Assembly (NCBI GenBank): GCA_048213135.1
Contig: PS015097.1
Coordinates: 278,070-313,863, forward strand
Direction of reading: 5' to 3'
DNA: 35,794 nt
From: Reclinomonas americana ATCC 50394
Taxonomy: Eukaryota
Shown here: piece after piece, positions 196 to 35,794 of the stretch
Layout of the letters: every line of letters starts with the position of its first letter
Position numbering within the stretch: the first letter of the stretch is position 1
Program-made: the position numbers and the translations under genes
The notes under the pieces: model-generated
Database searches by the model: none
Told to the model about the DNA's origin: nothing
The model's input: only the letters and a program-made list of their open reading frames with translations

Positions 196-2908
196 TTTGG
201 CGCAGAGTGTCGCTGGTGTGTCTGCCTTTGACGACACGTTTTTGTTGGGAGTCACTGCGGTGAGTGCGTCTGTCTTTCTCTGTGCACAGTGCGTGCATGA
301 GAGAGAGAGAGAGAGAGTGGTACATTGTGATTGCGTGTGAGTGAGATGGTCATGACGAGGCGAGGGCGAGAGATAGACATGAAGAGGGGTGAGAGATAGA
401 CAGATAGACAGACACACAGAGAGTGGAAGAGTGAGAGTTTATGCAGGCGGTGAAGATCAGCAGGAAACAAGTGAGGAGCAGAAGGAGTGGTGAAAGGACT
501 GTGTCGTCATTCGCTCTCTCTTCCTTCAGCTTGTTTTCCTGTTCTGCCCATGTGTTACTCTTTCCTCCTCTTCTTCTTGTCCCTTCCCTCTTCACCTTCG
601 CTCTCCTCCCGCTCATCGTTTTCCTCGTCCTTCTTCCCCGTTCCTGCTTCAGCTGTATTCTGCTCATGTTCTCATTCTTATCTTCTTCTTGTCCGTTCCG
701 TCTCCTCCTTCGCTCTCCTCCCGTTCATCGGTTGCCTTGTCCCCTGCCTTCTTCTCCTCGCCTCCCTCCCTTCCTTTCCCTCTCCCTCTTCCTCCTTCTC
801 CATTTCCTCTCCACTCCTCCTCTCCCCTGTCTTCCTTCACCTGCTCTCATCCTGTACCATCCTCCTCCTCCCTTTTTCTCTGCTCGATTTCCTCCTCCCC
901 GTTCTCTCTTCCTTCTTCTGTCCCCCCTTCCCTCTCACCCCCTTCTCCCATCACTTTCACAGCCTGCTGGGCAACTGTGCAAAATTGCCCGCGACGGTAT
1001 GCATGATTTGCGCGTCCCAACACATGCACCGTGCTCACACTTCTCCTTCCCCTCCCCTCCCACCAGGCTCCTCGGTGCAAGTTATCGCATCGGCGGTGAG
1101 CGATCTTCTTTTCCTTTCTTATTCATCGCGCCCTCACCCTCTCCCGTGCAGGGCTGGACGTTGGCACGACGCGCTGTTCTCCGCAACGTTGGCGGCAACA
1201 AGACCGTGGTAGTGGTAGAAACCGCCTGCCTGTGGTTGTACGACACTGTAACGAGTTTCGTGTGCAACTCTAATCGCGTCGCTTCCCCCCGGTTGACTGA
1301 CTTGCCTGTCTCGGCACGCAGACACGGCCACGGTAATCGCCGGCACGTGCTCGGCGCCTTCGTGAGTCCTTGCAGTCTTGTCTCTCCTTCGCGCTTCGTT
1401 CTCATTGTGCGGCGTGGGCTTGGCAGGTGCACCGTACCACCGGCGGATGGACTCGGCGCCGCGGCGTGTCTCTCGGTCGTGCGAGACGTAGCCGTCGACT
1501 CTGCGGGTGTAATTTACTTTGCAGATGCTGTTGCGTTTCTCTTCCCTCTCTGTCCCGCTCTCTCCTTCGCCCACATCCCATTTCTTGAATTTTTTCTTTT
1601 GCTCATCGTTTTCTGCCCCCTCCTTCTCTCCGTTTCTCTCCCTCCCTCCTCTGTCTCTCCTCTCTCTCTCTCTCCGCTCTATCGCGCTTTGTTTCTGTCC
1701 TCCCCCTTGTCTCGTCCTCCCCTCCCCCTTTATCTCTCATCTTCTGTCCCCTTTATCTCCTCCTTTTCTCTATTTGTCGCCGATTTTCCCTCCTTATTTC
1801 TTGTCTTCTCTCCCTTACTTTCTCCCCATTCCCTCTCCCCCTCACTTCCTCCCCATTCCTCCTCCTTCCTCCCCTCCTCCTCCTCCCTCCCCCCCCCCCC
1901 CCCCCTCCCTCCTCACTGCTTGCGCGCCTGCAGCAAGCGCACTCGATTCGCCAATGCGTGCTGCAAAACACGTCGCCGCCCGTTTGCTTGGTCTCGACAA
2001 TCGCTGGCGGCTCCGCCCCTGGCTTCCTCGACGGGGCAAGCAGCAATGCACGCTTTGCCCATCCGACCTCCATTGCGGTCAACGCGGCTGGCGACACCAT
2101 TTTTGTGGGCGATCTTGTTGCGTGCTGTATCGCGCACGACTGTGCTTTCACAAATGCTTACAAGTCGCTGCATTTCCTCGCTTGCGTGCACAGAATAATG
2201 CGGCGATCCGCAAGCTCACTCTATCCGGTGGTACGTGCCCGCTCCTGCTTTTCAATTGCGCTCGTCGCTCATTTTCCCCTGGTTGCAGGCAACTGGACTG
2301 TCAGCACGGTGGCTGGCAAGACTGGTGTTTCCGGTGTCGACGACGGAATTATGGGCGGTGGCCTGCTCGCATCTCCGCTGGCTCTGGCCATCGACCCTGC
2401 CACTAACGACTTGTATGTGGTCGACCAGGTGCGCCTTTTTTTGCAACAACTGCCATCTCTCGCTCCTTCCGTCTGATCGCCCTCTGGCCAGACAAACGGG
2501 TGCATTCGAGTGCTCACCGACGATGTGTTGTGGACACTGGCGGGCACATGCGGCGACACCGGAGCCACGGCCGATGGTTTCGGAAGCGCTGCGCTGTTCA
2601 ACATGCCCTACTTCAACTTGCTGCCTGGTCTGTACATCGATACGGCGGCCTCGCAGTTGCTCGTGTCGCAAGCGGTGAGTGTATGCGTGTCATGCGATGG
2701 GTGTGTGCCTGTGCAACTGAGTCTGTGCATGTGGCTTCTCTCCATTCCTCTCACTCTTCCTCTGCCCCCTCTCCTCCCCTCTCCTCCTATCCCTCGCCCT
2801 CTTCCTTCCCCCCTCCCCCCTCCCTCCCTCCTATCCCTCTTCCCCCTCCACTAACCCATCTCTCGCAACAGACCGTCGCCACGGCACCGATGCGCATTAT
2901 CAGCTTGA
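196..2908 (+). CDS. NHL-repeat beta-propeller region (N-terminal exons of the giant gene)
   Basis: Spliced translation gives typical NHL blades: [88 protein letters not shown]...[52 protein letters not shown]. Confidence 0.9.
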
Positions 2909-4193
2909 GTTGCGCGCACACCTCCACATCCTCACGTCATGCACTCACCTCTCACACGCCCCCTTTCTCCCTTCCCCTATCCCCCTTCCCCCTTATCCCC
3001 AGCCACCTTGTCGCCGTTGTCGGTGGACCGCACCCAGACATCCACAGTGACGGTGTCCTATGTCGACTGTCCCTCCGCTATGACAGCGTGGGCGCTGGCC
3101 ACCTCCAATTGTCAGGCCGACGTTTTTGTGCACGTACCGGCTGTTTTCGTGTCGGCTGGCGTGTTCACGGTCACCATCCCAGTCAACGCACTTGCGCAGG
3201 CCAGCGCGTACCGCATCTGTCATCCGGTCACCGCACCCACTGGTCCGGTGACCTCGGTACCCGGTCCCATTGTGCGCGCCATGTACCTGCGCCCGCTGGC
3301 GACACCGCAGACAGTGTTCACTGTGGCCGGCCAAATAATCTCCGTAGCCGGCAGCAACCTGGTGGATCTGGCGTCGACCGACAATGTGCCCTTGGTGGTG
3401 ATTCCAGACTGCAACACCGTGCCGGTCGCTCTGCCGCCAACATCGACCACTTGGGTGTCGTCCACCTCCTTGCGAGTGACGCTCGATGCGTCTTCGATGG
3501 CGGTCGGGTCGTACATGCTGTGTGCGCGCATGACATTGACTGCCGCGTACGTTCCTCTCGGAGTTATTAATGTTGGTGAGTCTCATACGTGGTACTCTTC
3601 TTGCGTGTTACCACCGTGTGCGTTGCATTTTCTCACTTTCTATTTTTGTGCGTCACAGCCGCACCGTACGTGAGCCCGGCTGCTGTCGCTGCGACTACGG
3701 CGCACATTACAGTGACCGTGGTCGGACCGAACTTGGATTCGATTCAGCAAGTGGTGCGATTGCGTCTCTTCCGTCGTCCTGTCCCTCCGCGCGTCTCATT
3801 CTTTTCCTTCTCCTTCTTTCTTGTTGCAGGGCCTTTCCACTGGGCGTTGCAATCTGCTGGACCCAGTCATATTCAACAGCCAGCTCGGCGACTGGGACTC
3901 GGTGCTGTTGCAGCGCGTGGTCACCTTTGATGGCGTGCTCTCGGCTGGCCTCTGGTACGTGTGTGGTCAGGACTCATCCACCGCTGTATGGAGTCCGCTC
4001 TTCACCGGTGGCCTTGGTCTTACCATCGATCCACCCGCCACTATTTCTGTCGGTACGTTGTCACTCACTCACTTGCACACACGCACATGCACGCACACAT
4101 GCACACACATACACACACACACACAAGAAAGAGAGACACTCACAGAGTCAGCCCGCACTCACTGTATCTGAGATCTCCATCTCTCTCTCTGCC

Positions 4194-4241
<48 letters not shown>

Positions 4242-5019
4242 NNNNNNNNNNNNNNNNNNNNNNNNNNNNNNNNNNNNNNNNNNNNNNNNNNNNNNNNNNN
4301 NNNNNNNNNNNNNNNNNNNNNNNNNNNNNNNNNNNNNNNNNNNNNNNNNNNNNNNNNNNNNNNNNNNNNNNNNNNNNNNNNNNNNNNNNNNNNNNNNNNN
4401 NNNNNNNNNNNNNNNNNNNNNNNNNNNNNNNNNNNNNNNNNNNNNNNNNNNNNNNNNNNNNNNNNNNNNNNNNNNNNNNNNNNNNNNNNNNNNNNNNNNN
4501 NNNNNNNNNNNNNNNNNNNNNNNNNNNNNNNNNNNNNNNNNNNNNNNNNNNNNNNNNNNNNNNNNNNNNNNNNNNNNNNNNNNNNNNNNNNNNNNNNNNN
4601 NNNNNNNNNNNNNNNNNNNNNNNNNNNNNNNNNNNNNNNNNNNNNNNNNNNNNNNNNNNNNNNNNNNNNNNNNNNNNNNNNNNNNNNNNNNNNNNNNNNN
4701 NNNNNNNNNNNNNNNNNNNNNNNNNNNNNNNNNNNNNNNNNNNNNNNNNNNNNNNNNNNNNNNNNNNNNNNNNNNNNNNNNNNNNNNNNNNNNNNNNNNN
4801 NNNNNNNNNNNNNNNNNNNNNNNNNNNNNNNNNNNNNNNNNNNNNNNNNNNNNNNNNNNNNNNNNNNNNNNNNNNNNNNNNNNNNNNNNNNNNNNNNNNN
4901 NNNNNNNNNNNNNNNNNNNNNNNNNNNNNNNNNNNNNNNNNNCGAACGACGACTACACGTACGACGTACGTACGTACCGTACCCGTACCTACCGTACCGT
5001 ACGTTACGTACGTACGTAC

Positions 5020-5105
<86 letters not shown>

Positions 5106-8100
5106 CCGTTGCCTTGACTTGGTGTCAAGTGAACTGATATCTCCTCTTCGTTCCGTCAGGGGGCCTATCGAGCTTCTGGCCCGTTACCGCCACCGCGGGC
5201 ACATCAACCACGGTGGTAATCACTGGCGTCGGATTTACGAGCGCCACAGTCACGGCGGTTGCTCTCGACGTGAGCGGCACGTGCACAGCGGCGGCCATCC
5301 CTGCCACATTCACGGTCACGACGGACACATCGCTGTTCTTCACCGTACCGGATGCCGTCCAGTCACCCTGTGCCGTGTGTGTCACACTCAGTCCGTCGAC
5401 CACGGCCAGTGCAGTGCCTGGTGGCCTGCTGATGATTGGTGTGTGTCGGCGTTATTGTGTGGTCGACTTTGTGAGTTGCACTCACCTCTTGCGTGCAGCA
5501 TCGGCGGCGGCCACGGCCACCTCATTTACGCCGCTTGCGTTGAGGCCAGCGGTGGCTGGCACACTGACAGTCCTGGGAACCAACTTGATTCCGTCCGCCA
5601 GTGTATCGGCTATTCGCCTGGAGTGGATGGGCGCAAGTGGGGCGCTGACGTGCACCGCCGACCCTGCCACCAGTCCACCAAAGTCGGTTGCCGTACTCGC
5701 CACCTCCATGGTGGCGTCAGCAAACAAGCTGAGCGTGCGCGTGAACATTGCTGCCGGGACGCTGCTCACGCCGGGCGCCTATTCTGTGTGCAGTTGAGTA
5801 TGGGTGCATGCGTCTTCCCCCTTCTTTACGCGTTAAAATTGACCTTCCTGCCATGCACACAGTTCTCTTTGCGTCGAGTTCGACGTACACGGTCGTATCG
5901 AACACCGTGCCACTGCTCGTTGGTGCGTCTCCGAGTTGCACGTGATTGTGCACGCCACGCCCCTCGTGTACTCACACACTGATCGACAGCTGGCTTTACG
6001 GACGCTCCGCTGCCATCGATCTTTGGTACTACTACACCGCCGACTCTCTCTCTCGGTGGTGTCGGCCTGGGTCTGGCGAGTGTCGCCTCGGTCACCTTCA
6101 CAACGTCGACCGACTGGTGCGTGCACCCGAATAATGCATGGTTTCACTGCAATATTGTCTGACGATGATATGGCTACAGTGTGGGCACACTACAAGCGGC
6201 GGCAGCTGCAATGTGTGTACGATGGCGTGCTTTATACGTGGCCTTCTTCACAGCGAGCTCACTTTGTGTTTCCCTCGTGCGTAGTATTCCTGTGCCAATC
6301 ATGAGCATGTTGCCGATTCTGCCGCTGGGCAGGTGCGTCCCACTCGTTTTCTTTCCCTGCCTTTGGTGCTGTTCTTATTGATGTCACCTGCTGCAGCCTG
6401 TCAACTAGGTGCGCCAGTGTTATCGCTGTTGCTCTCCACTCACTCGTTTTCCATTCATGTTTTCAATCTCCACAGCTTCGCTATTACATCGGCGACCGTG
6501 ACGACCACGCTGGCGACTGGGCTCACCGAAAGCGCACCTCAATACGCCTCCCTGTCGTTCCCCACCCCCGCACTCGCAGGTGGTGTCTACACTGTGTGTG
6601 CTTCAGTGTACGATGGTACGACTTCAGGCAACACGGTGGCCGTGCCTGTCACCATGGCCACCATCAACGTTGGTACGCACCTGCGCATCCTTGCTTCCTC
6701 CGCTTGTGTATGTGCGTGTGTGTGTCTCATGAGAAGTTCCAGGCACGGGCACGGGCGTGTCACCGACAAGCGTGCTTCTCGGATCATCAACCACCATCAC
6801 CGTACAAGGTAGCGGTCTGTCACCCGGTGTGGACATTTCGAGCCTGCGGCTGGTGCCGGGAACCACTTGCCCAGCTTCGACAACGGCGAGCATGCCGGCT
6901 GGCACATTTTCCGTCCCCGCCGCCAATCTCAGCTACAGTGCACTCGGCGGTCTCACGGTGACATTGCCGCCAGCCACAACATTTTCTGTGGCAGGTGCGC
7001 CAGTCAATCAATTGTGACGTGTATGTCATGTGATCGCTGCTCATGTATCTTTCTTTCTATTTCACTTCCCCACACAGGCGCGTACTCGGTGTGCGTCGAA
7101 TATGTCGCCTCACCTGGATTGCTCGTGCAAGCGTCACCCACTCCACTTCTCGTTGGTGAGTGCGCGATTGATTTGTGTCTCACTGAGCAGTGAGCTCACC
7201 ATCGAGTTACCACCATGACAGCATCCGTGACGTCGGTGACGGCGAATACCCTCTCGTCCACCTCTGGCGGCGTCCTCACGCTCACTGGTGCGGGCTTGTC
7301 GCCGTCGAGTGTGCGTTCCGTGTTGCTTCAATCGGGCTCCTCGTGCACCGGAGTCGCCATGTCGCCATCGGTCACCGTCGCCAGCGCACAATTGATTCCT
7401 CTGGCGCCAACGTCGTACACCACCGTTGGTGTGCCGCTCACTACGCTGCCCACAGCACCGTACACCGTGTGCGTCGATTACACGGCCAATACTGTGATCG
7501 GCACATTCCAGTCAGTTGGCACCGCAAGCGCTTGTGCGTTGTTGACATCCTTCTTTTGCTCTTTCGTCTCTCCCCTCTCACGAACTCCCACTGCAGCCTC
7601 GGCCATTTCTTTCTCGCCCTCGGTAATGACCGTCGGCACTCAGACGGATTTGACAATCACTGGGACGTCGCTGGCGCCCACCACCAATGTGGTGGCTGTC
7701 CGTCTTGAACGCGGCACCACGTGCACTGCCGACCCCACGGCTTCTCCTGCTTCCGGTTCCGTTTCCACCACCAATCTGGTGGGCAACGGAACCGGCCAGC
7801 TGCTCACCGTCACCATGTCGTCGCGCGTGAGTGCGGCTGGCCCGTACGCCGTGTGCGTGGAGTTTGTCCTCAGCGGAGGCGGCCTCTCCAACACGTATCT
7901 CGCAACGCAACAGGCACCGCTTCTCGTTGGTGGGGAGTTTTTGTTGTTGCACCTACTCTTGTTTTCCCCGCCTCCTCCTGCTGACACGCATTATTCTCCC
8001 ACTGTCGTGGGTGCAGGTGCCTCCATCACTTCCATTACACCGTTGGCGCTGATTCCGGACAGCGCGCAGCAATTGACTCTTGTGGGCTCTGCACTCGGCA

Positions 8101-11100
8101 TCAACTCGCTGTTTTCACTGCGCCTGCAGTCCGGCACCAGCTGCAGCTCCTCTTGTGCGCCGTTTGTGGACGTACCTGCCGCACAGTGGGCCGCCGTCGG
8201 CTCCAATTATACCAAGCTTGCGGCAACGCTCGACACGCGCAACATGGTCGGTGGCGCGTGGTCGGTGTGCGTTCGCTACCAGCCGCAGACGGCAGCCAAT
8301 CCGCTCACCAAAGTCGGTGAAATTGTCCTCGGTTGGTGCCACTCTTTCTCCCTCCTCCGACTGTGTGCGAGCTGCTAACATGGCGTCTTCCTCCCACTGG
8401 CACAGCTAAAATAACGGACTTGTCGTCGGTGGCACTGATGAGTGGATCGGCTGGGTCGGTGACGATGAGTGCCGCATCGCTGAAACCAGCACAGAACATT
8501 ACGTCTGTCACCATTCGACCTGGCGCCACGTGCAGCGGGCCTGTTGCTGCCACGCTCTCCCTGGCGGCCTCGCCACCGTCCACCTGTGTGTCGACCATCT
8601 CTGGCTCTTTGTCGAGCGCTCTGTCCCCCGGCGTGTACACGGTGTGCGTCGCATATACGGGTGGCACCGCTGGCGCGCTCCAACCGCTGCCGTCTCCCCT
8701 CTACATTGGTACGTGTTGTCTCTCCACTCTCTGCGAGTCTGGACAAACCAAACTGAACACTCTGCGCAGTCAACGTGGACTCGGTGTCGCCGTCACCCGT
8801 CGGTGTGCTCTCGACAACAACACCCACTTCCATTCGCCTCAGCGGACAAGGCTTGAATGTGGCCTCGATCCGTGCGGTGCGTATCGCCACCGATGACAAT
8901 TGCGGTGACGGTACCGACATCACGAGCGGCTTCTCCTTTTCTGCGGACAACACACTTCTCGTGGTGCCGCTGACTCCCGGCGATGTGCCGAGCGGTGGCC
9001 TCCTCGCAGTGTGCCTGGATGTCAGTAGCTCTGATCCGGCAGGCACGTGGAGCAAGGCCGGCACAGCTGTTCTCCGTTGCGTCCTTGCTGCTGTTCGCGT
9101 TTCTTGTGATTGCCGCTAACAAGCCCACTGCCCTTTGTCGTCAATCAGTCACCAGCAATCGCCGATATCAGTCCTTCAACCCGGTGACTGCCGACTCCAC
9201 CGGTGCGCTGACTCTGACTTTGTCGGGTGGCGAAGCGTATTCTGCCGCCGCCGTGCGCCTGGCCTTGGTCGGCACGAATTGTTCGCAGACACTGTCAACG
9301 ACTGTCAGTGCCGGATCGTTGCAGCCGACCGTGGTTATTGCGTCGGATTCTGTTGTCGACGGTGGCGCTGCGAACCACAAGTTTGCCGTTCTCGGTCTGC
9401 TCACATCGACGACAACGCTGGTGGTGGCTACCACGGCCACCACTCCAGTCCTGATCACGTCAGACATGGAGGTCTCCATGTTTGGTTCCACCATCTTGCC
9501 GGGCTACTATCAGGTGTGCGTCACGGACGCTGCCACGGGAGACACATACATCGCGTCCCCCGAGCTGCTGGCCTACGGTGAGTGTGTGATTATTTATCAA
9601 AGGCCTTCTTTGGGGCAAACCCCTCACCCACCACTTGCAGATGTTGTGGCGCCTGCTGATCTTGCCTATGGACCAAACACGTACACCTATCCGGCGCCGT
9701 CTAGTGGTGTCGTGGCCGTGGGTGCAGTGGGCACGACGAACACGGCAACAATCACCGTGGTCAACTCCTCCATGTTCTCCGTGTCCGGTGGTCAGCTGTT
9801 TCTGCAGGCCTCGGAACAATCAGATCCGACTCTGTCGGTGACTCTGCAAGTCGCCGACTTGTACGGCAACTCGGTTCAGCGCACCGTTTCACTCCAACGC
9901 GGTTTGTGCAATACGTGGCGGGGTGGTGCCTTTTTGTCGTTTGTATCTATGTTCTCATCGTGATGTTGGGCTTGCAGTGTGCGACGCCGCTGTTACATGG
10001 TTTGTCTGTGTGTCGTCGCTGCCTGCTGTGGCCATCCGCGAATCTCATCCTTGTCTCACTGCAGCAACGGCAACGGCACGTGTGACGCGAGTGAATCGTG
10101 TACGTGCATCCATAATTTCCGACCACCGTACTGTCGCACACAGTTGCGTACGCGTGTGTATTTGTGTGCAACATGCCAATATTATTTTATTCCCTCATCC
10201 GTGTGTGTTGTTGTACCTGTAGGTGTGTCGCTTCCAGCGACTGCAACGACAATGGCACCTGCAACGCCTCGGGAGTGTGCGTGTGCAACGCCAATTTCGG
10301 CGGTCCTTTCTGCTCGTACTCGTTGCGTGGCAACTTTTGGTGTCACATCTACAGCACAGCGCACACAAACCACTCACCCTTTTATCTCCGCTGCAGCTGT
10401 GGATCTGGCTCGGCGCCGACTACCGCGTCGTTTGCACCACCGACTGTGTCACCAACACGAACGTTGCCGTTCAATCTGAGGATCTACGGTGCAAACCTCG
10501 ATCCGGAAAACGTCGTCCGTGCCGTTCGCCTACAACGCGGACAGGTGTGCACTGATGTTGCGGCGACGGCGGACCTGCTGCCAGCGGCCTTTGACGCCTT
10601 CTCGAACGATGGCGAAACTTCGTCGTGGGTAGAAGTCCGTTTCGACAAATTGCCGACTCCAGACGTGTACTCTATGTGCGCGCAGCTGGCGTGCGCCGAC
10701 ACACACTTTGTGGCGGTTGGCGGCACGCAGTTGCTCTTTGTCCGTGAGTCACTATCTCCCTGTTGCCGCACACTGTTTTTTGTGTGCGTATGCTGCTTGG
10801 ACTCACTCCGCTGAGCAGCATCGGTGGCAACCTTCACGCCAACGACCGTGGTGGCTGGCACACCGGTCAGGCTCACTGTGCAGGGTGTTGGGCTGTCGGC
10901 CAGCAGTGTGCGCACAGTGCGCTTTGAGCTGTCACCTGTGTGCACCTCCGGGTCGCTGCCGCGGCAACCGTTTGTCGAGTTCTCGGTGGCCACTGGCGCC
11001 GTCGCATTTGCGGGTGGCACATTCACGGAGCTCAGCGTTCAACTCGGAGCAGCAACCTTGTCCGTCGGACTGTGGAGCGTGTGTGTGGAGTACGAAGGCG

Positions 11101-12849
11101 ATGATGTTCTGGCTTCCGTCTTCAACCAGGCTGATTCCATCCAACTCACCGTCGGTAACGTCACGCTGGTTTCCTCCTCACTGTTCTTTACAGCTTGCAG
11201 TCGCTCATTCTCTCTTATGTCCGCGACAGCTGCTTTGTTGTCATCGGCAGCAGCATTCCAGCCAATATGGACGCTTTCCTCGGCTCCCATTACGCAGCTG
11301 ACACTGCTCGGTGTGGCACTGCAGCCGGACACGGGTGTGGTGCGCGTGCAACCGCAGCTCGGATTTGCGTGCGGAATTGCGCCCAACGAAGGCGACGAAT
11401 ACGTTAGTGTCACCGGTTCCGGCCTGTCGGCGAGTTTCGATGGGCAGACGTTGGTGGCGGTGCTGCCGCCGTGGTCGTTGTCGACTCCTGGGCTGTGGAA
11501 GTGAGTTGATCGTGATATTATGTCTCTTTCTGTTGACTTTGGAAGACTTACGAAACTTGTGTTTGCATGCAGTGTGTGCATTGAGTATGCGCGACAGCCG
11601 GGTGTGCTCTCGCAAGGCGCACTTTTGCCTCTGTACAGCAGTTTCGTGGCCGTGTGTTTATGTGTTCGTGTGCGTGCGAAGGCTTCTCGAGAACGACCTC
11701 TGACTGTGTGCATCACAGTGAGTTTGGACAGCTTCATGCCGTCGGCAGTATTCGCCTCGCCGCAGCCGGCACTTGTAACGCTTACTGGGCACGGGCTCAC
11801 GCTGGCTGCATTGTCGGCCGTGCGCTTCGAGTTGGGTCCTCTCTGTACCGCCTCCGCCTCCAGCACTCCCGCACATGCGTTTGTGGATGTTCCGCTGGCC
11901 GACGTCACGATTGTGGACCAATCGTCGGGATCGATTACGATTCCTGGCGGCTTCTCGTGCCCCGATCCGACGAACAAGTGGTCGCTGTGTGTGCTCCTCA
12001 ATCAGCAGGTGGATCGACCGTATGTCAATGTGGTGCCGGGAACGCAACTGAGTGTTGGTGAGGGCGCGCAAAGCAGGCAAAATAGTCCGTGTGCTGGTTG
12101 CTGAGTATTGTTGGCATTTTGTGTGTACACAGTGTCTCCGCAAGCCGTGACTACTGCGCTGCTGCCTGTGCCCTTTGGAGTGTCGATACCGTCAATGACG
12201 CTGACCGGAATCAACGTCGGCAGCGTAATCAGCGTGGTGCTTCAGAGTGGTCTCTCGTGTTCGACGGGTGCGGGTACAGTTAGTACTGCGGCGACGCTTT
12301 CCCCGCAAGTCGGGGCCTGTGCGTCGACTACAGTCGCCAGCTTCTTCAGCCCGAACACGGTTCCTGCTGGCGTGTACTCGGCCTGCGCAGCACTGACGGA
12401 CCCGCCCTCGAGTTTAGCGCAAGTGGACACTGTCACTGGCGAGCCGCTGCTTGTCGGTTCGTGTTGTCCTTCTGTTTCTCTTTTGCAGCTCAATCTCTCT
12501 GTCTCACTTTTCCTGTCAACCAGCTTCGGCCACGTCATTTTCGCCGCTCGGTGTGTCATCGACGGCCGTCACCACCACTCTGTTGCACATTTCTGGTGTC
12601 GGCCTCGGCGTGACCTCGGTGCGTACCATTCGCCTGGAGGCTGCGTCGACGTGCACAGCACTGGGGACACCGAGTTCTGGCATTCAATACTACGACATCA
12701 CCGCTGGCTTCATCCCCAACGCCACGTTTACCGATTTGGCCGTGCCGCTGCCACCATCGCTGACCGTCGGATACTACAGCGTCTGCATTTCGTATCCAAC
12801 CACTGGAACACCCGCCTTTGTGGCAGTCAACTCGCAGCGCCTCATCGTC

Positions 12850-12948
<99 letters not shown>

Positions 12949-13905
12949 GTTGTTGNNNNNNNNNNNNNNNNNNNNNNNNNNNNNNNNNNNNNNNNNNNNN
13001 NNNNNNNNNNNNNNNNNNNNNNNNNNNNNNNNNNNNNNNNNNNNNNNNNNNNNNNNNNNNNNNNNNNNNNNNNNNNNNNNNNNNNNNNNNNNNNNNNNNN
13101 NNNNNNNNNNNNNNNNNNNNNNNNNNNNNNNNNNNNNNNNNNNNNNNNNNNNNNNNNNNNNNNNNNNNNNNNNNNNNNNNNNNNNNNNNNNNNNNNNNNN
13201 NNNNNNNNNNNNNNNNNNNNNNNNNNNNNNNNNNNNNNNNNNNNNNNNNNNNNNNNNNNNNNNNNNNNNNNNNNNNNNNNNNNNNNNNNNNNNNNNNNNN
13301 NNNNNNNNNNNNNNNNNNNNNNNNNNNNNNNNNNNNNNNNNNNNNNNNNNNNNNNNNNNNNNNNNNNNNNNNNNNNNNNNNNNNNNNNNNNNNNNNNNNN
13401 NNNNNNNNNNNNNNNNNNNNNNNNNNNNNNNNNNNNNNNNNNNNNNNNNNNNNNNNNNNNNNNNNNNNNNNNNNNNNNNNNNNNNNNNNNNNNNNNNNNN
13501 NNNNNNNNNNNNNNNNNNNNNNNNNNNNNNNNNNNNNNNNNNNNNNNNNNNNNNNNNNNNNNNNNNNNNNNNNNNNNNNNNNNNNNNNNNNNNNNNNNNN
13601 NNNNNNNNNNNNNNNNNNNNNNNNNNNNNNNNNNNNNNNNNNNNNNNNNNNNNNNNNNNNNNNNNNNNNNNNNNNNNNNNNNNNNNNNNNNNNNNNNNNN
13701 NNNNNNNNNNNNNNNNNNNNNNNNNNNNNNNNNNNNNNNNNNNNNNNNNNNNNNNNNNNNNNNNNNNNNNNNNNNNNNNNNNNNNNNNNNNNNNNNNNNN
13801 NNNNNNNNNNNNNNNNNNNNNNNNNNNNNNNNNNNNNNNNNNNNNNNNNNNNNNNNNNNNNNNNNNNNNNNNNNNNNNNNNNNNNNNNNNNNNNNNNNNN
13901 NNNNC

Positions 13906-13942
<37 letters not shown>

Positions 13943-22543: not shown

Positions 22544-22583
<40 letters not shown>

Positions 22584-22737
22584 CTCTCTCTCTCTCTCNN
22601 NNNNNNNNNNNNNNNNNNCGTACGTACGTACGTCGTACACGGTTACCGTACGTACGGTTCGGTTCGGTTTCGGTTTGGTTCGTACCAACGTAACGTTAAT
22701 TTTAGTTTGTTTGGTTTGGTTGTAGTACGTACTACTA

Positions 22738-22788
<51 letters not shown>

Positions 22789-24673
22789 TTATCCAGCCAC
22801 TGCTTCATTGTTTTCGCCAGTGACAATTGTGGCATCATCGGCAGCCGCCAAGGTTACAGTAACCGGCACGCACCTGGCTACCTCCGACGATTTGGCGTTG
22901 GAGCCTGGCGACTCCTGCACATCAGCCGGCGGCGCTTCCGGCACCGTCACCATCTCCACAACCCCAGTCCTTGGCGGCGGCGCTACATTGCTTACCTACA
23001 CCATGGGTGGCAGCGGGGTGCCTGGTGGTGTGTACTCTGTTTGCCTGCGCTTCTCGACCACGGGCGGCTACTTCAAAGTTGGCATCACCGAGCTTATCAT
23101 CCGTTGCGGCATGACGTGTGTGTTTTTTGAATATTGATTCATGGGAGTGTCGCCTCACCTACCGTGATGCATGTTCTCTCCCGTAGCCGCATTCACGGCA
23201 GTGACCCCGCTGTCGGCCACTGCCGAGGTGCCGAACACTGCCTTCACCCTCACTGGCGTCGGGATGCGGCCTGGCGCCTCCATTGGCACGGTGTTGTTGC
23301 AGCCGGGCAGTAGCTGCACCGGCACCAACGCCACGGTCGTGGGCACCATTGCCCCCGATGCGACCCTCACCACGCTGTCGATGCTCGTAGACGGAGCCGG
23401 CATTATCATGCCACCGCTGCCTCCCGACACATTCATCGTGTGTGTGGAGTTGCTGTCGGCGCCGTCAACATATGTGCAGGCCACACCCGATGTCATTGCT
23501 GTTGGTGCGTGGAGGATGCATGCGCTGTAGTCAACAAAGAGACTCACTGTTGTGTTTGTCATGTGCACCAGCGGCCGTCGCCAGTAGCTTCTCGCCCGCG
23601 CAAATCAACGCAGAGATGCAAGGCGAGATCGTTGTGTTGTCGGGCCTCGGTCTCCGTGCGTCGGATGTGGTGCGACTGCAGGCTGTTCCTGGCTCGTGTG
23701 CCACTGTGGGAGCGCCCACTCAGTTTACGTCGTCTTCGCTCATCGGCCTGCCGGGAGCGCGACAGTTGACCGCCTCTGCCACGAGTGATGCCACTGTTCC
23801 GCTCGGCTCCTACACTGTGTGGTTGCGTTTGTGTGCAGCGCAACGCGTCCACTGTTGTTCCTCCTTGTGGTTTTGTGTCGTGACTTTTTGGTTGTGTCAT
23901 CACAGCATTCAGTATGGTGGTGCCGGCGTATTCAGCGCCCTACCTTCCACTCTCACCGCTGGTTCGTATGCACTGCGCTCGGTTTCTGGTCTTTCTGTGC
24001 ACTCGCAGTGCAACTGACTCCTGTGCGCAGTGGCCACGGTGTCGGGGTTCACGCCATCTACCATCAATGCCGAGGATGTGACAGCCACGCTGACTGTCCT
24101 CGGACGAGCCCTCGACGTCTCCTTTCCCGTGATTCTCGAACCGTCTGGCTCGTGCTCGATGCTGCCGTCGGCTTCGGCCGTCCTTCTCACTTCCACTTCT
24201 GTCGTGGGTGTCGCCGGTGCGCGCAAGCTCATCAGCGCCGTTTCCGTGTCGAGTCCTCTTGGTCTTGGCACCTACGCCGTGTGCATTCGGTTGGCCGTCG
24301 GCGCTCCGTATCAACAAGTCGGCAGCTCGCTCCTTGTTGCTGGTGAGCGACAGTGTGGAGTCATTCATTGCACAGAACGAGAAAGGTGGACTCACTCACT
24401 TCTCCAACCCTGCGCAGTCGGCTCGGGTATCGACTTTTCCCCGAGTACCATTCTTGCGGAACTCGGTGGTTCCACACTCACTGTCACTGGTCGCGCACTC
24501 ACCGTGGACGACACGTTCACATTGGCCTCTGGGGCTGTGTGCCCTATCACTGGTGGCTCCATTCCACTCACTGTGGCGGGTAGTCCGGGTGGATCATTTG
24601 GCGCGCGGACCCTCTCTGTTACCGTGCCAGCGGTGCGTTTGTATGTGAGAAAAGGGAGAGAGATATAGAGAGG

Positions 24674-24745
<72 letters not shown>

Positions 24746-27700
24746 TGACCTCACCACTCGTGTGTCATCGGTTGTAGATTCCACAAGACACATACACGCT
24801 CTGTGCCCGTTTCTCTGGCCGCCAGGCGAACGAGTTCAGCAGTGTCGGCAACACGTTGCAAGCTGGTCTGGCACTCGTCCACCATCGATCCCGTGTGTCA
24901 GCACCACAGATTCTCATCCGTGTGGCTCCTCGTGTCGCAGATCCGTCTGTCACTGGATTCTCGCCGCTGGTCATTGCCAACGACGGCCGTGGATCGGAGA
25001 TGGTCGTTTCGGGTCGCGCGCTGAGCACCAGCGATGTGCTCGGTTTGGCACCGGCAGCAAGTGGGTGTCCGGCGTCATCGTTGTCGGCCGGCAACAGTGT
25101 TCTATTGCACACTGGCGCTCTGTCTGGCGCCTTTGGCGCACGGCTCCTTGCTGTCACCGGACAGAGTATGGGTGTGCATGGAGGCCAGTTCGCGTTGTGC
25201 ATCATGTTTGCTGGAGCCACCACTGTGACTCAAGTGGGCGCTTCGCTGGTCACTGTCGGTGCGTTAGCGGTACTCGTGATGTCACCAGTGACTGCACCAC
25301 GACACTCATTCATAGGGGCGATTTGATTTGCAGCGGAATTGACGGCTTTGGATCCGCCCACGGTTACGCGGGCAACAGGTCGCACGGTGGCCGGCACTGG
25401 TGTCTCGATGGTGGCCGTCGCACCGACCGACACTGCCGCATTTGTGCTCGTCAGTGGGTGTACAAGTGCTGACACGGTGACCCCGCCCGCACCGGCCGCC
25501 GTGGCGGTCACCATGAGTGGCACAGTGTCGGGTGGAACGACTGTAGCGTTTACTCTCGATGCGAGTGGTCTCCTCGCTGGCTGCTACAGAGTTACGCCCG
25601 TGTGAATGAGAGGGGGATGTGGAGAAAGGGAGGAGCTCGAGGCGTGCGTGCGCATCTCACTATTTTTGCTTGTAACAGGTGTGGGTGCGCTGGCTTGCCA
25701 CGAATCTCTACTCGTTCAGCGGGCAGACGCTCTCCGTCGGTACGTGCCGCGTGCACCATTTGTCAGCTGGGGATTCTTGGCGTGCTCACACTTGCTCGCG
25801 TCTTGTAGCTGCGTACACATCGATCTCACCGGCTGCCGTGCTCTCTGCTGTGGCACACACGGTCACTCTGAGTGGCAATGGGTTTGTCTCGTTGCCGGCG
25901 AACCCTCCGGAAGCCATGCTGACGCAGTTGTGCGCTGGAACACTCCCTGTCGCGTGGCCGTCGTCCACCGTGACTGTGAATCCGTTGATGTCGTCGACGT
26001 CCATGTCGCTCGTGGTGGACGGGAGCAGTGGGGGTGTGTGATTGGGAGAGAGGGAGGAAGGGAGGGAGGGAGGGAAGAAAGAAGGGTGGGAGGAGGGCAG
26101 GAGGAGGAGCACACAAAAGAGCGGAGAGTACTGTTGACAGAAGGTGATGGGAATTCATGTATTTACTGTGTGATGTTGTGTTGCAGCTAATGGCAGTGCC
26201 CTGGCTCTTTGTGTCCGCTGGAGTGGGTCGGCCAGTGCGCAGTGGACTTTGGCGGGTGCCATCAACTTAGGTGCGCTTGTATCATAATTTCATTACTCAC
26301 TTTGGTCTTTGTTGTTGTATTGACGATTGTGAACGCCGTGTACCTTGCGTCTTCAGTCCGCATTGACGTACCACTGGCAGCTCCGGCAATCCATGCCACC
26401 AGCGCGCAGGTTTCGTGTTGATGCTGTCTTACTCATGCATTTCGTCGTGTGCTAATGGAATAGCTCCACTTGTATCGCAGTCGATGGTGTTGACAGGCGG
26501 AGGATTTGTCGACATGTCACAGACTGCCCTCGGCGGCGCCTTTGACAACCAGGCCTGGGTGCTGGCGGCAAGCTGTGCCGGTGTTTCAGTCCCTGTGGCC
26601 AACACACTGGTCACTCCGCAGTCATTGACTGCGATGGTCACTCAGCCGCCACTGGTCAGCGCACTTGTTTCTCCGCTGGCAGTGGCTGCCATGCCCACGA
26701 GCATGACTCTGCAATTCGATGCCCTTGGCGCCGTCACCGGATCGTACTCCCTGTGTGTACGTTTCGCTGCCAGCGCCACATACGATGCTGTGGCCACGTT
26801 GAACATTGGTAAGTGCTCGGCATTGTTGCTGTTCATTCACTCCCACGTACTCACATTGTGCCCCCCTCCGCTCACAGCCACCATTCTATCGTCCAATCCA
26901 CCGGCGGTGGTCGCCGGAGCCGTATCGACGGTGACGCTCAGTGGTGGCGGTCTTGTCGTCCCCTACGTCACCAACACGCAGGCGCTCGTGGTCGCCACGT
27001 CGTGCACTGGGATGGGCATGCTGCCGCCACCGGCACCAGTTGTCGTTCTGACCAACGCCATGCTGGCGGCCTCCAAGCTGGTGCTTTCCATGGACACTCG
27101 GATGGTCGCTGGCGGCGCTTATCGCGTGTGTGTGAAGTGGAATGAGGCTGCAACTACCTACGTGGATGCGGTTGGCATCAGCATTGGTTTGTCATTGCTC
27201 TTGCCACTTTTTTGCTCATGCGCAACTAATGGTTTCCCGTGCAGTGGCTGCAACTTCCATTCTGCCGCCTGTGATTCCGCCAACGACGAGCGCGCCTGTC
27301 GTGCTTCGCGTCCTCGGCTCTGGTCTTATCAATATTGGCCTCAACAGCGATCCGCAGCCGGCGTTCCTCGCTGACGACAGTACGTGCGCCGGCGCCAATG
27401 GTGGCTCGGGTCTCACGGTGTCGTGGAATTCGTTTGTGAGCAGTGGTGAAGTGCGCTTCACCGTGTCGGCTGCGATTGCTCCGGCGGCCTCTTATACCCT
27501 TTGTGTGCGGTGGTCATCGACGACTCCGTACACATCTGTCGGTCTCACGTTAGATGTTGGTGAGTACGCATTCCACACACAACCCACACGCACGTCCATG
27601 TGTCCTCTTTCGTTGACACACATCGTTCCCCCTACCAGTGAGCATCACATCGTTCTCGCCGCCGACAATCAATCGTCAACTCGACCAGAGACTGACGCTG

Positions 27701-30700
27701 CAAGGCAGTAATTTGGTGGCGCCATCGACCGTGCAGTTCTTTGCCTCGCCGAGCTGCGGCGCTAGCTCGCCAGTCACAGTCGCCGGAGTCTTGTTGGCAT
27801 CGGAGTCGGCCAGTGTGGTTGTCGCCAACATAGCTGACTCGGCACCTGTCGGTTTCTGTCGCCTGTGTGTGCGGTGGAGTCCCAGCACTCCGGTGTATGA
27901 TCTTGGCCTGCTCGGTGTTGGTGAGTGCCGACTGTGTGTTCTCTTCGCACTCGTGGTGGTATGCTGAGCCTTTTGACTTGCGCACGACAGCTTACATGAC
28001 GCCGGAGCCGACGTTTATGTTTGCGGCCAACAACACGGACGTGACGGCGAGTGGCGACGGATTCGTGTCGTTCGGATCGGACACGGCACCGATGCTAATC
28101 TCCCGCGACTGCAAGCGTTCACCGACACCTGCACCAAACATGCGGGTCCGCGCTGCACGCACCCTCTCCACCACACTTGTGGCATTCACACTGGACGCCG
28201 ACGGTGCCACTGCTGGTACCTATCAGGTCAGCTTTTCTTCTGCCTCCTATTCTTGTTGCTTCTTCTCTTGCCAAGTATACTCACACACACACCGTTGCAC
28301 ACAATGGTAGATGTGCACGCGTTGGGCATCGACTGCGCCGTATAGCACAGCCGGCATCTTGTACATTGGTTTGTGTCTTTTCTTGTTGTTGCTGGCTCCC
28401 GTGCAATGCGCGCACACTCATGTGTGATTTAGTGGGCGTGTTTGAGGTGCAACCGAACTCCATCAGTGATCAGCGCGGTCAGCTCGTATCAGTCATTGGT
28501 GACGGCCTCCCGAACCTCTCGGGCGACTCGCGTTCTGTCGTCTTCTCGCCCAACTGCACCCGTCCATCGATTGTGGCGCCGTCGTCAGTCACCAACTCGA
28601 CGCTCACTGTCGGTACTGGCGATCTCCAGCACGCGACGTTCACGATCAATGCGAAGCACGTGGCCGGTGGCGCATACTCGCTGTGCATGCGGTTGCCGGG
28701 CGGCAGCTCCTACCAGTTTGTCGGCTCGCTCAGTGTCGGTACGTCGTGTGTCGTTGGCTACAACTTTTTGCCTGTCGACTCACGACGATCCTGTCAACAG
28801 CGCCCCTTCCGCTGTTGCAAATCACGCAGGTGTCCAGCGAGGCACCCGTCAACGCGCAGCCGGGTACCACCTCCGCAGCCACCGTGTACGGACACAAGGG
28901 CTTGGCAGTGGAGTGGGAGGCCACCGAAGACGTCTCGGTCGTCAATGTGGAAGTGTGGGCTCTCGAAGGAGGTTCGTACGTGTACGTGTGTACTCGTTGC
29001 TGATGTCACGCGATATTCACATGGGCGCGCGCACTCGTGTGCGTGTATGTAGGCATGTGGCGCCAGCTGTTGGTGGCAGTGACGGATGTGGCGGCCACCG
29101 ACTCGTCGGCCACGCTAACTCGCACACTGCAGGCCCTGAAGGGCACCATTGGCACCGATGTTGCGTTGCGCATCCAGTTGTCCAGTGCGACCACCAATGG
29201 GACCACCAGCAGTGGAGCCGTGGCGCAGAGCTCGCCGTTCTTCCTGCGTTGTTGCGTCTTGCACATCAGGATGGAGTGTCTCTCTGTCTCGCTGATCGTC
29301 CCTTCACTGATGTTGACTTGGTGCTTTGTGTGCGAACAGTCCCGGCGGTGGCCAGCAACGTCACGGTCTCGCAAGTTGTCCTCGGGCAACCGCTGACAGT
29401 GCAATGGATGTGTGACGGCCCGGCCTCCACCAACAGCACGTTTTTGATTGAGGTGTGTTGGGCACCAATCATGCACTCTGATGACTCTCGCACACACACA
29501 CACACACAAAAATCGGTGTTTTTTTTTTTGCAGGTTTTGGACTCCTCCAACGCCTTGGTGGACACGCTGTCACGCGCCGCTCGCGGTGCCTGTGCACCGC
29601 AGAGCACGAGCAGCAGTGTTGCCGGCGGAACTCGTTCTCTTCCCGATTCGACCAGCAGCTCGACGACAGCGATCAACACGTTTGTCTATCAACCACCGGC
29701 TGGCACGGCCGTCAAGTTTACGACGGGTAACAACTACCGTGCCCGTGTGACACCCGTCGGCGAGGACACCACGTCGTGGGACATTACACCGACCAACTCA
29801 TTCCGTTTCATTGGTGAGTTAACTCGACAGGAGGAGGTGCGGGGAGGATCCATGCTCAATGCGTTATTTTTCCCCCTCTGCAGCACCCACGTCGGGCTTC
29901 TCGTCGTGCCCGAATAGTATTACGTGCTGGTACTGGTTGCTGCTCATTGGTGCCACCGGCACACTACTGTTGCTGCTCGGCACTTGTGGTGCTCTGTATG
30001 CGTGCGCTCGCCGTCGTCGCCGTCGCGACACGCAACGCCTGTTGCGCAGCCAAACAAATGTCCTGCTGATCGAGGCCGCGCTCAAGGCGCAGCCAGAGCT
30101 CTCGTTCTGGTACTTTGTGATGCATCCGTCGTGGTGGTTCGGCAGCGGCGGCACTCTGGCTGCCGCCGGCAAGAATCTGTCAGTGCGCGAGCTTGGACCT
30201 GTGCCAACTGGTGGCGACAAGGCCGCAGCACTGACCACAATCGACTTTAGTGACGTGTTCCGTTGCGTTTTTTCCCCCTCCGACGTACCACATTGTTTAC
30301 CTCGCAGTCATTCATCTCACCCGCGCGGTAGGTTCTCCACTGTACGGCAACGTCGCATCCCCTTCAATTCCGCGTTTGCCGTCGCTTCACTCGTCGCCAA
30401 TCGCCTCAGCAAGCAACACGCCGCGTCCGCCAGTGGGGCCCACCACTCCTCGTGGCGTCGTGCCAAGCCCCGCAGCATCGCCAGGTGAGTCACAGCTATC
30501 TTTTTACGATCACTCGAGTCTCGTCTCTGACAATCTCCGAGCAGCCGGTGCACCACGTCAAACGCGCGGTATGCTCGAGTCGCCGAGAGATCACGACCGA
30601 GCTGGGTGGAATGGCAGACACACGTCGTCTGCCACACCGAGTCTGCAGAGTGACAATGATCACGCGCGGGCCGTCGAGTTTGTACCGGATGCAGGAGCGC

Positions 30701-31728: not shown

Positions 31729-31772
31729 TTATTGGTAAACACAATTGGAGCGGCATCATTGTTTATACAAGA

Positions 31773-33629
31773 TTATGAATTGAGCTCCACCAACAGACCC
31801 ACCAGGAAGATGACGACAGAAAAGTATAAACCGGCAAAGTTCATCGCACGGCCGCTGTCGACTTCGGCGTGCAGAATACGCACACCGTCGTGCATTTCAA
31901 TGGACTTGCTGATGAGTTGCAGGAGCTGCGGGCAGCGTGCGTCCAGGTGACGCGAGTCGGCGTAGTAGTAAAAGTCGATCTGCGGCCGGGGTGTGTGTGT
32001 CTGTGTGTCAGCTTTGTTGTGCTAGCAAACAAGCGCACAAGTACTCACCGAGGCCGCAATGAAGAACTTGCGGTGTGCCTTGTCGCGAGCATTGGAACTG
32101 GCGGCCGCCACCAACACAAATGTGTTTGCCGTCGTCAGTGCCACCAGGTCGGCAAGTGCCAGGAATGCCGGAAACAGATTTGCCGTCGGCGACGACTTGA
32201 CCAGTAGCACGGCTATGAGGAGGAGGACGAGGAAGACCACTGTCTCGAACACAGTGACACCAATCACGATCTCGGCCTCGGCCTGTCGCTGCCGATTGAC
32301 GTGTTCGCGATTCTGCGTGCAAATAAGGCATCAGCCGAAAGGGGGGGGGGGGGGGGGGGAGGTAGTACGACGTACGTACGACGACGAACGAAGAAAGAAG
32401 ACGCACACGTACGAAGTAGTCGCGGACGACACACAGAGACGNNNNNNNNNNNNNNNNNNNNCGACGACGACGTACGACGAGAGTGAGGAGGGGGGGGGAG
32501 GGTGAGACTCTACGTGACAGCAAAAGAAAAGCGCAACTGCCAAGTATTGCCGGGCAGACCACCAAGAGCGTACGTCGGGGACGTTGAATGGACTGAGTTC
32601 GAGGCCCAGCGAGCCACCCGTCCATGCTTCGGAGAAGAGAACATTGCGCTTTGCGCGGAACGTGAACTTGTTGTAACTCGTCATTTGGAGCAGCAGAATC
32701 TGTGTGTGTGTGTGCACGGTGGTGATGAGTGTACTGCCTTCATCTCGCTGTCTTTCCCCTTCCGACATACCAGCAAGTACACCAACGGCGTCACGAGCTC
32801 CGGATAAATGACGGCCAGGTAATCGACGAATCGCTCAGTATCGCCCCACAACAGTGGCTCGCCTGCACCACCACCACCACCACAGTCAGCCACCGTACCA
32901 CGCAATCGCAGTATTGGCACACACGCACCGGCAAACCCGTGAACAAAGAACGGGAGAATGGCTCGCACGATACACCATGTGACACATGCCACCACCTGTT
33001 TGTTGGTCACCTCAATGTACTCGGTCCACACCTGTGATGATGTGGGGGAGAAAGGGGAGAGGGGGAGAGGGGAGAGGGGTGGGGAAAGGGGTGAGGGGTG
33101 AGGGGAGAGGGGAGAGGGGAGAGGGGTGGGGAAAGGGTGAGGGGAGAGGGGAGAGGGGTGAGGGGTGAGGGGTGAGAAGAGAGGAGAGAGGAGAGAGGAG
33201 AGGAGAGAGGGGAGAGGGGAGAGGAGAGAGGAGAGAGAGAGAGAGGATGAGACAGAGAGAGAGAGAGACAGAGAGAGAGAGAAGGTCGGGACAGACGACG
33301 TCGTCGACTAGTGACGAAGGAACGGTCGCACTACAACACGACACAACACACCACACAGAAGAAATGATAGCGATACGTAAGTAAAGTTCGCCGAGAANNN
33401 NNNNNNNNNNNNNNNNNNNNNNNNNNNNNNNNNNNNNNNNNNNNNNNNNNNNNNNNNNNNNCGAGAGACGGACCGACACACAGAGAGAGGGGGAGGACGT
33501 TGTCGAGAGACAGTCATACACACCAACCACCAACAACCAACACAACAAACAACAACAACACACACAACAACACACAACAAAGACAACAACAACAACAACA
33601 ACAACAACAGCAACAGCATCGACAACAAC

Positions 33630-33683
<54 letters not shown>

Positions 33684-34726: not shown

Positions 34727-34766
<40 letters not shown>

Positions 34767-35509: not shown

Positions 35510-35794
35510 GGGTGACGGAGGGACGACCAATGGATGTTCAAGAGACTGTGTATGGCACACAAAGTTGTGACTCGTTAGAATGGAAGGGAGAAAGGAGCTA
35601 TCTTAGATCGTCCCACAGTACGGCTATTACAAATAAAGATGCAGAGCTCGCTCGGAAACCCACAGCCCTTCCCTTTCTAAATGTCAGCAGTGTTCTACCA
35701 CGGCAAACGAGCAAGCTTATCTCGTCCCACGACACAGCTTCACAAACACAGACGCACTCTCTCTCTCTCTCTCTATCTCCAATGCTCTTTTCCT

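Follow-up and report, generated by a model that had tools for sequence, protein, structure and literature searches.

Donor class tracks the last exonic base in a giant gene of Reclinomonas americana, in a pattern that fits U1 pairing slid by one base

The DNA considered here is one window of 35,794 nucleotides from Reclinomonas americana ATCC 50394 (GenBank assembly GCA_048213135.1, contig PS015097.1, positions 278,070 to 313,863 of the forward strand), and all positions below count from its first base. It carries a giant gene on the + strand (196–31728), with 90 exons and 89 introns in our curated model, followed on the − strand by a multi-exon gene (31773–35602; a 10-exon model, partly checked by eye) for a membrane protein with several hydrophobic spans. 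Joined, the exons of the + gene form one open frame of 6943 codons whose only stop is the terminal one, and the protein comprises NHL-like repeats, about 60 IPT/TIG-like domains, two EGF-like modules, a membrane span, and a proline-rich tail. Five of 75 exon translations match Pfam TIG at E ≤ 0.01 (1 above the curated cut-off), and EGF_2 and EGF_Teneurin match 10224–10319. Most exons are one domain long, most measure 294–333 bases, and 63 of the 89 introns are in phase 1. Two kinds of GT-AG donor (5′ splice site) appear to be used within this gene, and our analysis confirms that the class of a donor tracks the last base of the exon ahead of it, position −1.

We inferred all junctions from the reading frame and from protein motifs. 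A dynamic-programming gene finder combined open frames, a codon table (first trained on eight clear exons), a penalty for introns, and matrices for acceptors and donors that were refined over several rounds of learning; the donor matrices gave zero weight to their three exon positions, so that the −1 base had no influence on the choice of a donor. The automatic model (89 exons) ran on into introns whose sequence was open and added two spurious tiny exons in the EGF part and three spurious introns in the tail; it was corrected by hand, with doubtful regions viewed in three frames. Protein evidence was the only ground for changing a junction: where the repeats end when 27 single-domain exons are aligned, the motif G-x-Y-x-V-C-V-R/E-W/Y, and how the six cysteines are spaced in the two EGF-like modules. 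A 22-base micro-exon at 9978–9999 (+), which automatic parses skipped, is needed to complete the first of these modules (C-DAAVT-C).

An ordinary donor has the form G/GTNNGT (for example, G/GTGAGT or G/GTGCGT, the slash marking the cut), with a GT at +5 and +6. A shifted donor reads N/GTTGCGT, GTTTCGT, or GTTGAGT, with that GT at +6 and +7 after an extra T, and was counted by the pattern GTT[G/T/A][C/A]G. Shifted donors make up 21 of the 89 in the + gene (about 24%). Their heptamers are GTTGCGT (13), GTTTCGT (4), and one each of GTTGAGT, GTTGCGC, GTTGCGG, and GTTACGC; +1 G, +2 T, +3 T, and +6 G are invariant (21/21), +5 is C in 20/21, and +7 is T in 18/21. Their −1 bases are 6 A, 6 T, 5 C, and 4 G. 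The ordinary donors number 67, with −1 G in 55 and another base in 12, and one further donor, GTAACGT at 11155, has −1 G. Eleven of the ordinary donors also start with GTT (GTTTGT, GTTCGT, or GTTGGT, with GT at +5 and +6), and −1 is G in all eleven.

The shifted motifs are used as donors at nearly every occurrence on the + strand of the gene: GTTGCGT in 13 of 15 cases, GTTTCGT in all 4, and GTTGAGT at its single site (18 of 20 together). For comparison, GTGCGT is a donor in 10 of its 40 occurrences and GTACGT in 6 of 28. In the gene region, the + strand has 15 copies of GTTGCGT and the − strand 3. Moreover, a parse run without any donor model already chose ten GTT[ACGT][AC]GT donors, 8 of them GTTGCGT.

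For each shifted donor we looked for other in-frame GT-AG pairs within 45 bases that had passable signals and an open frame. Twelve of the 21 have no such alternative, and 11 of those 12 lack a −1 G; where alternative donors are present, nearly all of them lack it as well. Among the sites with no alternative pair (all on the + strand, with the last three exon bases in lower case), −1 A is found at cga/GTTTCGT (1255–1261) and at the shifted-like tga/GTTGCGC (2909–2915), which has C at +7. The sites with −1 T are gct/GTTGCGT (1530–1536, and again at 16166–16172), ctt/GTTGCGT (2117–2123), tct/GTTTCGT (16776–16782), cct/GTTGCGT (20521–20527), and gtt/GTTGCGT (29251–29257); −1 C stands at tcc/GTTGCGT (9076–9082) and ttc/GTTGCGT (16639–16645), and −1 G at tcg/GTTGCGT (14815–14821), one of four exceptions to the general pattern. 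The other three exceptions are tcg/GTTGCGT (22439–22445) and cag/GTTTCGT (26410–26416), both of which have an alternative for the acceptor only, and gtg/GTTGCGT (23822–23828). An alternative for the acceptor only is likewise present at tcc/GTTGCGT (30262–30268; −1 C), the donor of a 46-base intron after the membrane span, where a change of frame is required between 30235 and 30488. Weaker alternatives are present at gca/GTTTCGT (11641–11647; −1 A).

Conserved protein motifs fix the junctions at 5793, 16776, 23822, and 25591. At gca/GTTGAGT (5793–5799; −1 A), the only shifted donor with A at +5, the junction restores YSVC-I. The donor at 16776 lies within a domain, and its use preserves the L-x-L-x-G-x-G-L spacing. 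The donor at 23822 splits a Cys codon (TG/C) and restores the conserved Cys of G-x-Y-x-V-C. The shifted-like donor aga/GTTACGC (25591–25597; −1 A), found by hand, restores the G-x-Y-x-V-W-V-R-W spacing by joining G-C-Y-R to V-W-V-R-W; its alternative, ccc/GTGTGA at 25600, would add three residues. The two EGF-like modules each end at a shifted donor. At the end of the first, aca/GTTGCGT (10143–10149; −1 A), also found by hand, restores the six-cysteine pattern in a phase that fits the exon at 10223; the frame stays open in the joined model, and weaker alternative donors exist. At the end of the second, ctc/GTTGCGT (10322–10328; −1 C) has an alternative at 10277 that would cut into the EGF module. 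The shifted-like donor tcc/GTTGCGG (23103–23109; −1 C) is ambiguous with cgt/GTGTGT at 23118, and neither has a −1 G; 23103 is preferred in that the repeat ends with ...ELII in the repeat alignment.

All 21 shifted donors have GT at +1 and +2, and frame and protein motifs are consistent with a cut at N/GT. Other placements were tried and rejected. Reading the sites as GC-AG introns (GTT/GCGT) would break the motifs at 5793 and 23822 and is inapplicable to the four GTTTCGT donors; also, GTT always precedes the GC (21/21), a constancy that coding bases in front of a GC donor would not show. A GA-AG reading, again with the cut behind GTT, was rejected, as was a cut one base later at both ends of the intron. 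A junction slid by one base from an ordinary donor was rejected as well, since shifted donors at repeat ends keep phase 1.

Donor class and the −1 base are strongly associated. In the curated set the ratio of non-G to G is 17/4 at shifted donors vs 12/56 at the rest (Fisher test, odds ratio 19.8, p = 2.0e-7), so that shifted donors account for 17 of the 29 donors without a −1 G and for 4 of the 60 with one. The test gives p = 1.2e-6 for phase-1 introns only (11/2 vs 6/44), p = 1.5e-5 for strict motifs only (14/4 vs 10/42), and p = 2.9e-4 for the raw, uncurated model (17/4 vs 23/44); with all 20 hand-changed or flagged donors removed (69 left), it gives p = 2.9e-6 (13/4 vs 7/45). Measured against codon position, −1 G at ordinary donors is far in excess (55/67 seen vs 22.7 expected, p = 7e-16) and at shifted donors is not distinguishable from expectation (4/21 seen vs 6.9 expected, p = 0.25). 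Against the ordinary rate of 55/67, about 17 of the shifted donors should have a −1 G, and 4 do (binomial p = 6e-10). Thus −1 G is strongly selected at ordinary donors and looks unselected at shifted ones.

A sequence-only reading of this stretch, made before the gene was rebuilt, had reported that 17 of 21 shifted donors follow A, C, or T, with 14815, 22439, 23822, and 26410 as exceptions, and had asked for a Fisher test of −1 base against donor class; the rebuilt gene returns the same count and the same four exceptions, and the test, run on the modelled junctions of this gene, gave the p value of 2.0e-7 above. The coordinate 1254 from which that reading started is the −1 base of its first site, the intron beginning at 1255. 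It had also counted 7–8 ordinary donors without a −1 G. The seven it listed (1362, 7534, 10744, 11501, 17121, 17947, and 21559) hold, and the total rises to 12 of 68 with 6213, 14407, 18149, 24893, and 28986, of which 14407 (GTACAT) and 28986 (whose alternative, 28972, has a −1 G) are uncertain. Its further claim that non-G ordinary donors are all strong GTGAGT or GTGCGT sites did not survive: the five added donors are GTGTGT (three), GTGCGA, and GTACAT, such strong motifs occur in 7 of 12 non-G vs 19 of 55 G donors (p = 0.19), and the pairs at +3 to +8 do not differ in number (3.75 vs 3.87). The claim is the same as the rule that the exon and intron halves of a donor depend on one another, and the trend here is weak. 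Such interdependence, with a weak exon side going with a strong intron side, is said to have been described by Burge & Karlin (1997) and by Carmel et al. (2004).

The codons split at phase-1 repeat boundaries differ between the classes: at ordinary donors they encode Ala, Val, or Gly in 42 of 49 cases, and at shifted donors Leu, Pro, Ser, Ile, Met, Thr, Asn, or Phe in 11 of 13. Coding constraint may set the donor class, or the donor class may relax the −1 base; a single locus fits either direction.

Some features of the ordinary sites are recorded here in their own right. G at −2 is nearly absent at ordinary donors (1/67) despite 32% G at third codon positions, and is found at 3/21 shifted donors. 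The donor at 7930 (+), ttg/GTGGGGAGT, lies at a normal repeat end and belongs to neither class, with GAGT three bases late. The modelled donor at 14407 (+), gct/GTACAT, is very weak; a good ttg/GTTTGT stands at 14415, at the expected repeat end, and is out of frame with every acceptor. The oddity at 14407–14420 (+) may reflect a base missing from or added to the assembly, or a small exon that was missed.

We lean towards the reading that shifted donors are bound by the U1 small nuclear RNA (snRNA) one base further into the intron, in a slid register; the exact junctions, U1 as the reader, and the register are each what we infer. At ordinary donors, in the usual register, the 5′ end of U1 would pair with −1 G, +1 G, and +2 U, then with +5 G and +6 U. 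At shifted donors the same part of U1 would bind one base deeper, with +1 G opposite U1 C9, +2 U mismatched with C8, +3 U paired with A7, and +6 G and +7 U paired with C4 and A3. Cleavage would stay before the GU, as later steps of the spliceosome would set the cut. The last exon base would no longer face C9, so any base would be allowed there, and shifted donors would thus fall mostly where the split or last codon supplies no G; with a −1 G present, the ordinary form would pair better and prevail. Neutrality at −1 among shifted donors is what should be seen if the +1 G of the intron already occupies C9, and the tolerance of any base at the preceding exon end, which only the introns with shifted donors display, fits U1 bound one base further in.

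The mechanism is most likely of a known kind, the slid U1 register, in a new and very frequent form with its own consensus. In human cells a register shifted by +1 is experimentally established (Roca & Krainer 2009, as relayed by Tan et al. 2016, PMC4856993; reviewed in PMC9311317). Common to that human class, as there described, and to the donors in this gene are a cut before GU with the U1 pairs moved one base inward, +1 G in place of −1 G, +6 and +7 acting as +5 and +6, and an exon end that is not needed for C9. They differ in frequency: all validated noncanonical registers together account for ~1.5% of 201,541 human donors by the figures given in PMC4856993, vs 21 of 89 donors in this gene, where the class is known from sequence alone. 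They differ also in consensus, for the human site reported there as tested, ACA/GUCAAGUAU, has A at +4 and +5, and GUUGCGU has a +5 C that conventional U1 is unable to pair.

Several results weigh against the slid register as so described. Pairing energies were calculated by nearest-neighbour rules against AUACUUACCUG, the conventional 5′ end of U1 given in PMC4856993, from which the organism's own U1 may differ. By this measure, which answers the comparison of registers that the sequence-only reading had proposed, the slid register is better at 8 of the 21 shifted donors only; no stable duplex forms in either register at 9, and the canonical register is better at the 4 that have a −1 G. C/GUUGCGU comes to 0 kcal/mol in both registers, vs −1.4 for canonical C/GUGCGU and −5.8 for C/GUGAGU, and the sole shifted donor with a strong predicted slid duplex is that at 5793 (GTTGAGT, −7.6 kcal/mol). 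Sliding swaps the C8 pair for a C9 pair and adds none relative to N/GUGCGU, so a gain in pairing is unsupported. Conventional U1 would favour A at +5, not the observed C, and −1 A is not preferred in the shifted class (6/21), though A would pair with U1 U10. The Fisher test is not significant for phase 0 and phase 2 introns only (6/2 vs 6/12, p = 0.09). The repeat tree is poorly resolved, and an independent-pairs test had 1 pair on supported branches and no power. An Rfam scan of the whole window gave no match, so neither U1 nor any other snRNA lies within it, and the support comes from one locus with modelled junctions. The sequence-only reading had cast the exchange as compensation, the intron's +1 G taking the U1 position of a −1 G that coding constraint denies; the −1 neutrality and the strong link fit the change of position, while the absence of an energy gain leaves the compensatory part unsupported.

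The shifted motif is not simply the ordinary one moved by a base, in that C is found at +5 in 20/21 shifted donors vs at +4 in 26/67 ordinary ones (p = 2.7e-6). This demand for +5 C suggests a G at position 5 of U1. When the 16 base combinations at U1 positions 5 and 6 were scanned, a U1 with G at position 5 fitted best, with 84 of 89 donors at or below −3 kcal/mol vs 64 of 89 for the conventional sequence, and with the slid register better at 20 of the 21 shifted donors, a result that is a fit to the same donors. As a prediction from this fit, it suggests that the organism's U1, or one U1 variant, has G instead of pseudouridine at position 5. Extended to the genome, this becomes a two-register donor code in which about a quarter of introns would start N/GUUGCGU and be read by a U1 with an altered 5′ end (G at position 5) or by a second U1 variant, a proposal that we put forward only tentatively and regard as possible rather than probable. 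The U1 5′ end, ACUUACC, is near-universal.

Two other ways of reading the shifted donors compete with the slid register. In the first, pairing would start as usual at +1 G and +2 U, one U at +2 or +3 would be bulged, and pairing would resume with GCGU, so that −1 would still face C9. For human donors, PMC4856993 tabulates such a register, bulged at +3 (or +2) and credited to Roca et al. 2012; it is very rare, with 68 donors predicted and 54 remaining after revision. The likeness to the donors here is a start with GUU and a consensus-like tail one base late; the difference, going by that description, is that the bulged register keeps the pair of −1 G with C9, whereas −1 G is not favoured here (4/21). 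A free C9 should favour −1 G as it does at ordinary donors (55/67), and what is seen is no more than neutral. We therefore judge a bulge unlikely as the explanation of the class as a whole. It probably fits the four shifted donors with −1 G, at which the canonical start is the best pairing (−2.6 to −5.6 kcal/mol), and the odd donor tcg/GTAACGT at 11155–11161 (+). The latter had been suggested to be a version of the shifted type with an inserted A. It probably does begin a real in-frame intron of 75 bases (11155–11229), and unspliced the exon would be 682 bases long with a non-domain stretch between two domains; with A at +3 and G at −1 it is not of the shifted type and fits a bulge.

In the second, a separate reader, whether a second snRNA, a U1 variant, or a protein, would recognise intron bases only, and the exon end would be irrelevant. 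The rigidity of the heptamer (+1 to +3 and +6 invariant, with +5 and +7 nearly so), the almost invariable use of the motif, and the lack of predicted pairing with conventional U1 all speak for such a reader, and expressed U1 variants are described in humans (PMC3561869, PMC10870369). U12-type introns offer a parallel in their rigid, intron-only donor motif without preference at the exon end; they differ in that the donor here is not RTATCCTT, and the 3′ part of the shifted introns showed neither a conserved branch-site word nor any other difference. A U12 identity was rejected. Among 779 and 1622 k-mers tested in the last 45 bases of introns, the best p values were 0.0025 and 0.012, none outstanding, and no enriched k-mer survives multiple testing. 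Acceptors are CAG in 18 of 20 shifted vs 55 of 64 other introns, and median intron lengths are similar (77 vs 70.5). Shifted introns are thus otherwise like the rest, and therefore nothing indicates a minor-type spliceosome. One U1 sequence carrying G at position 5 would be enough for both classes, and we hold a separate reader to be improbable, to much the same degree as the bulge.

It is more improbable still that the pattern is an artefact of gene modelling, with shifted junctions mis-assigned (as GC-AG introns after GTT or other pairs) and the −1 link arising from the choice of junction. The junctions do come from a model; first models mis-set several, 14 donors were removed or replaced by hand, some alternative donor exists for 6 of the 21 shifted donors, and the − strand candidate at 34116, described below, has an equally good ordinary alternative. 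Against this stand the invariant GTT at +1 to +3, the four junctions fixed by protein motifs, and the 12 sites without any alternative, 11 of them lacking −1 G, with alternatives elsewhere that mostly lack it too. Exon positions carried no weight in the donor score, and the link persists when every edited junction is left out.

Least probable, and largely refuted as the cause of the link between class and −1 base, is inheritance by repeat duplication from one ancestral exon–intron unit with a GTTGCGT donor and a non-G exon end, since, although homologous domain exons follow one another in a long array and some shifted donors are neighbours (16166, 16639, and 16776; 10143 and 10322), the repeats are very divergent in alignment, a tree of 50 repeat ends requires 8 changes for its 8 shifted donors (the maximum, which 194 of 300 shuffles also reached), an all-vs-all comparison of intron bodies gave 12 similar pairs that are all low-complexity and include no pair of shifted introns, 13 of the 21 shifted donors lie off repeat boundaries (in the NHL part, the EGF modules, inside domains, or in the tail), and one shifted donor belongs to another gene.

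That other gene is the neighbour on the − strand. Its shifted-like donor, gca/GTTGCGC (32531–32537; intron start 32537), is firm and, as the sequence-only reading had stated, follows a base other than G (−1 A at 32538). A candidate shifted donor, cgc/GTTGCGT (34110–34116, −), is ambiguous: with the ordinary donor tgg/GTGCGT at 34132 (−), whose acceptor (ttcacag/) is better, the frame stays just as open. Adding this gene to the Fisher test gives p = 1.8e-8 to 4.5e-8, depending on the treatment of the ambiguous site. A Pfam scan of 9 of its exon translations gave no match, and a protein-collection search with exon 32049–32312 (−) against longer proteins found no relative.

Relatives of the + gene were also sought. 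A search of exon 3002–3577 (+) against longer proteins gave no match. A search of metagenome contigs with exon 3005–3574 gave 147 pattern matches, of which 0 were confirmed, and hence provided no orthologous introns for comparison. In the ESM Atlas, the nearest entries to this two-domain exon are unnamed eukaryotic clusters, whose few labelled members are Euglenozoa (given as the commonest group on two records), and one TIG cluster; as to lineage this is no more than a weak hint.

In the cytoplasmic tail, a 60-base in-frame candidate intron at 30485–30544 (+), cag/GTGAGT ... gcag/, is open if read through and could be retained or spliced. Odd stretches rich in ACGT and CGTACG, together with long CT, GT, or GA microsatellites, lie beside runs of N at 4943–5030, 22619–22740, and 32340–32480, and may be artefacts of assembly or gap filling. 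The N gaps fall within modelled introns and may conceal exons.

Searches of the available library turned up neither an organism in which shifted donors are frequent nor a donor motif of the GTTGCGT type, and the literature listed on euglenid introns contained nothing bearing on that motif. If the pattern extends through the genome, gene finders with a single donor matrix would misplace about a quarter of junctions, as our first models did here, and the organism would provide a natural and frequent case in which the U1 binding site and the cut site are uncoupled by one base, as well as a clean example of a splice signal and a codon trading constraints. The sequence of the U1 5′ end is a sharp prediction from this pattern. 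If the two-register code is true, the slid register would be a mainstream, strong intron mark that lifts the demand for G at exon ends; a noncanonical register that is a rare exception in humans would become a normal part of the spliceosome, and Reclinomonas americana would offer a natural system for asking what sets the cut site independently of U1.

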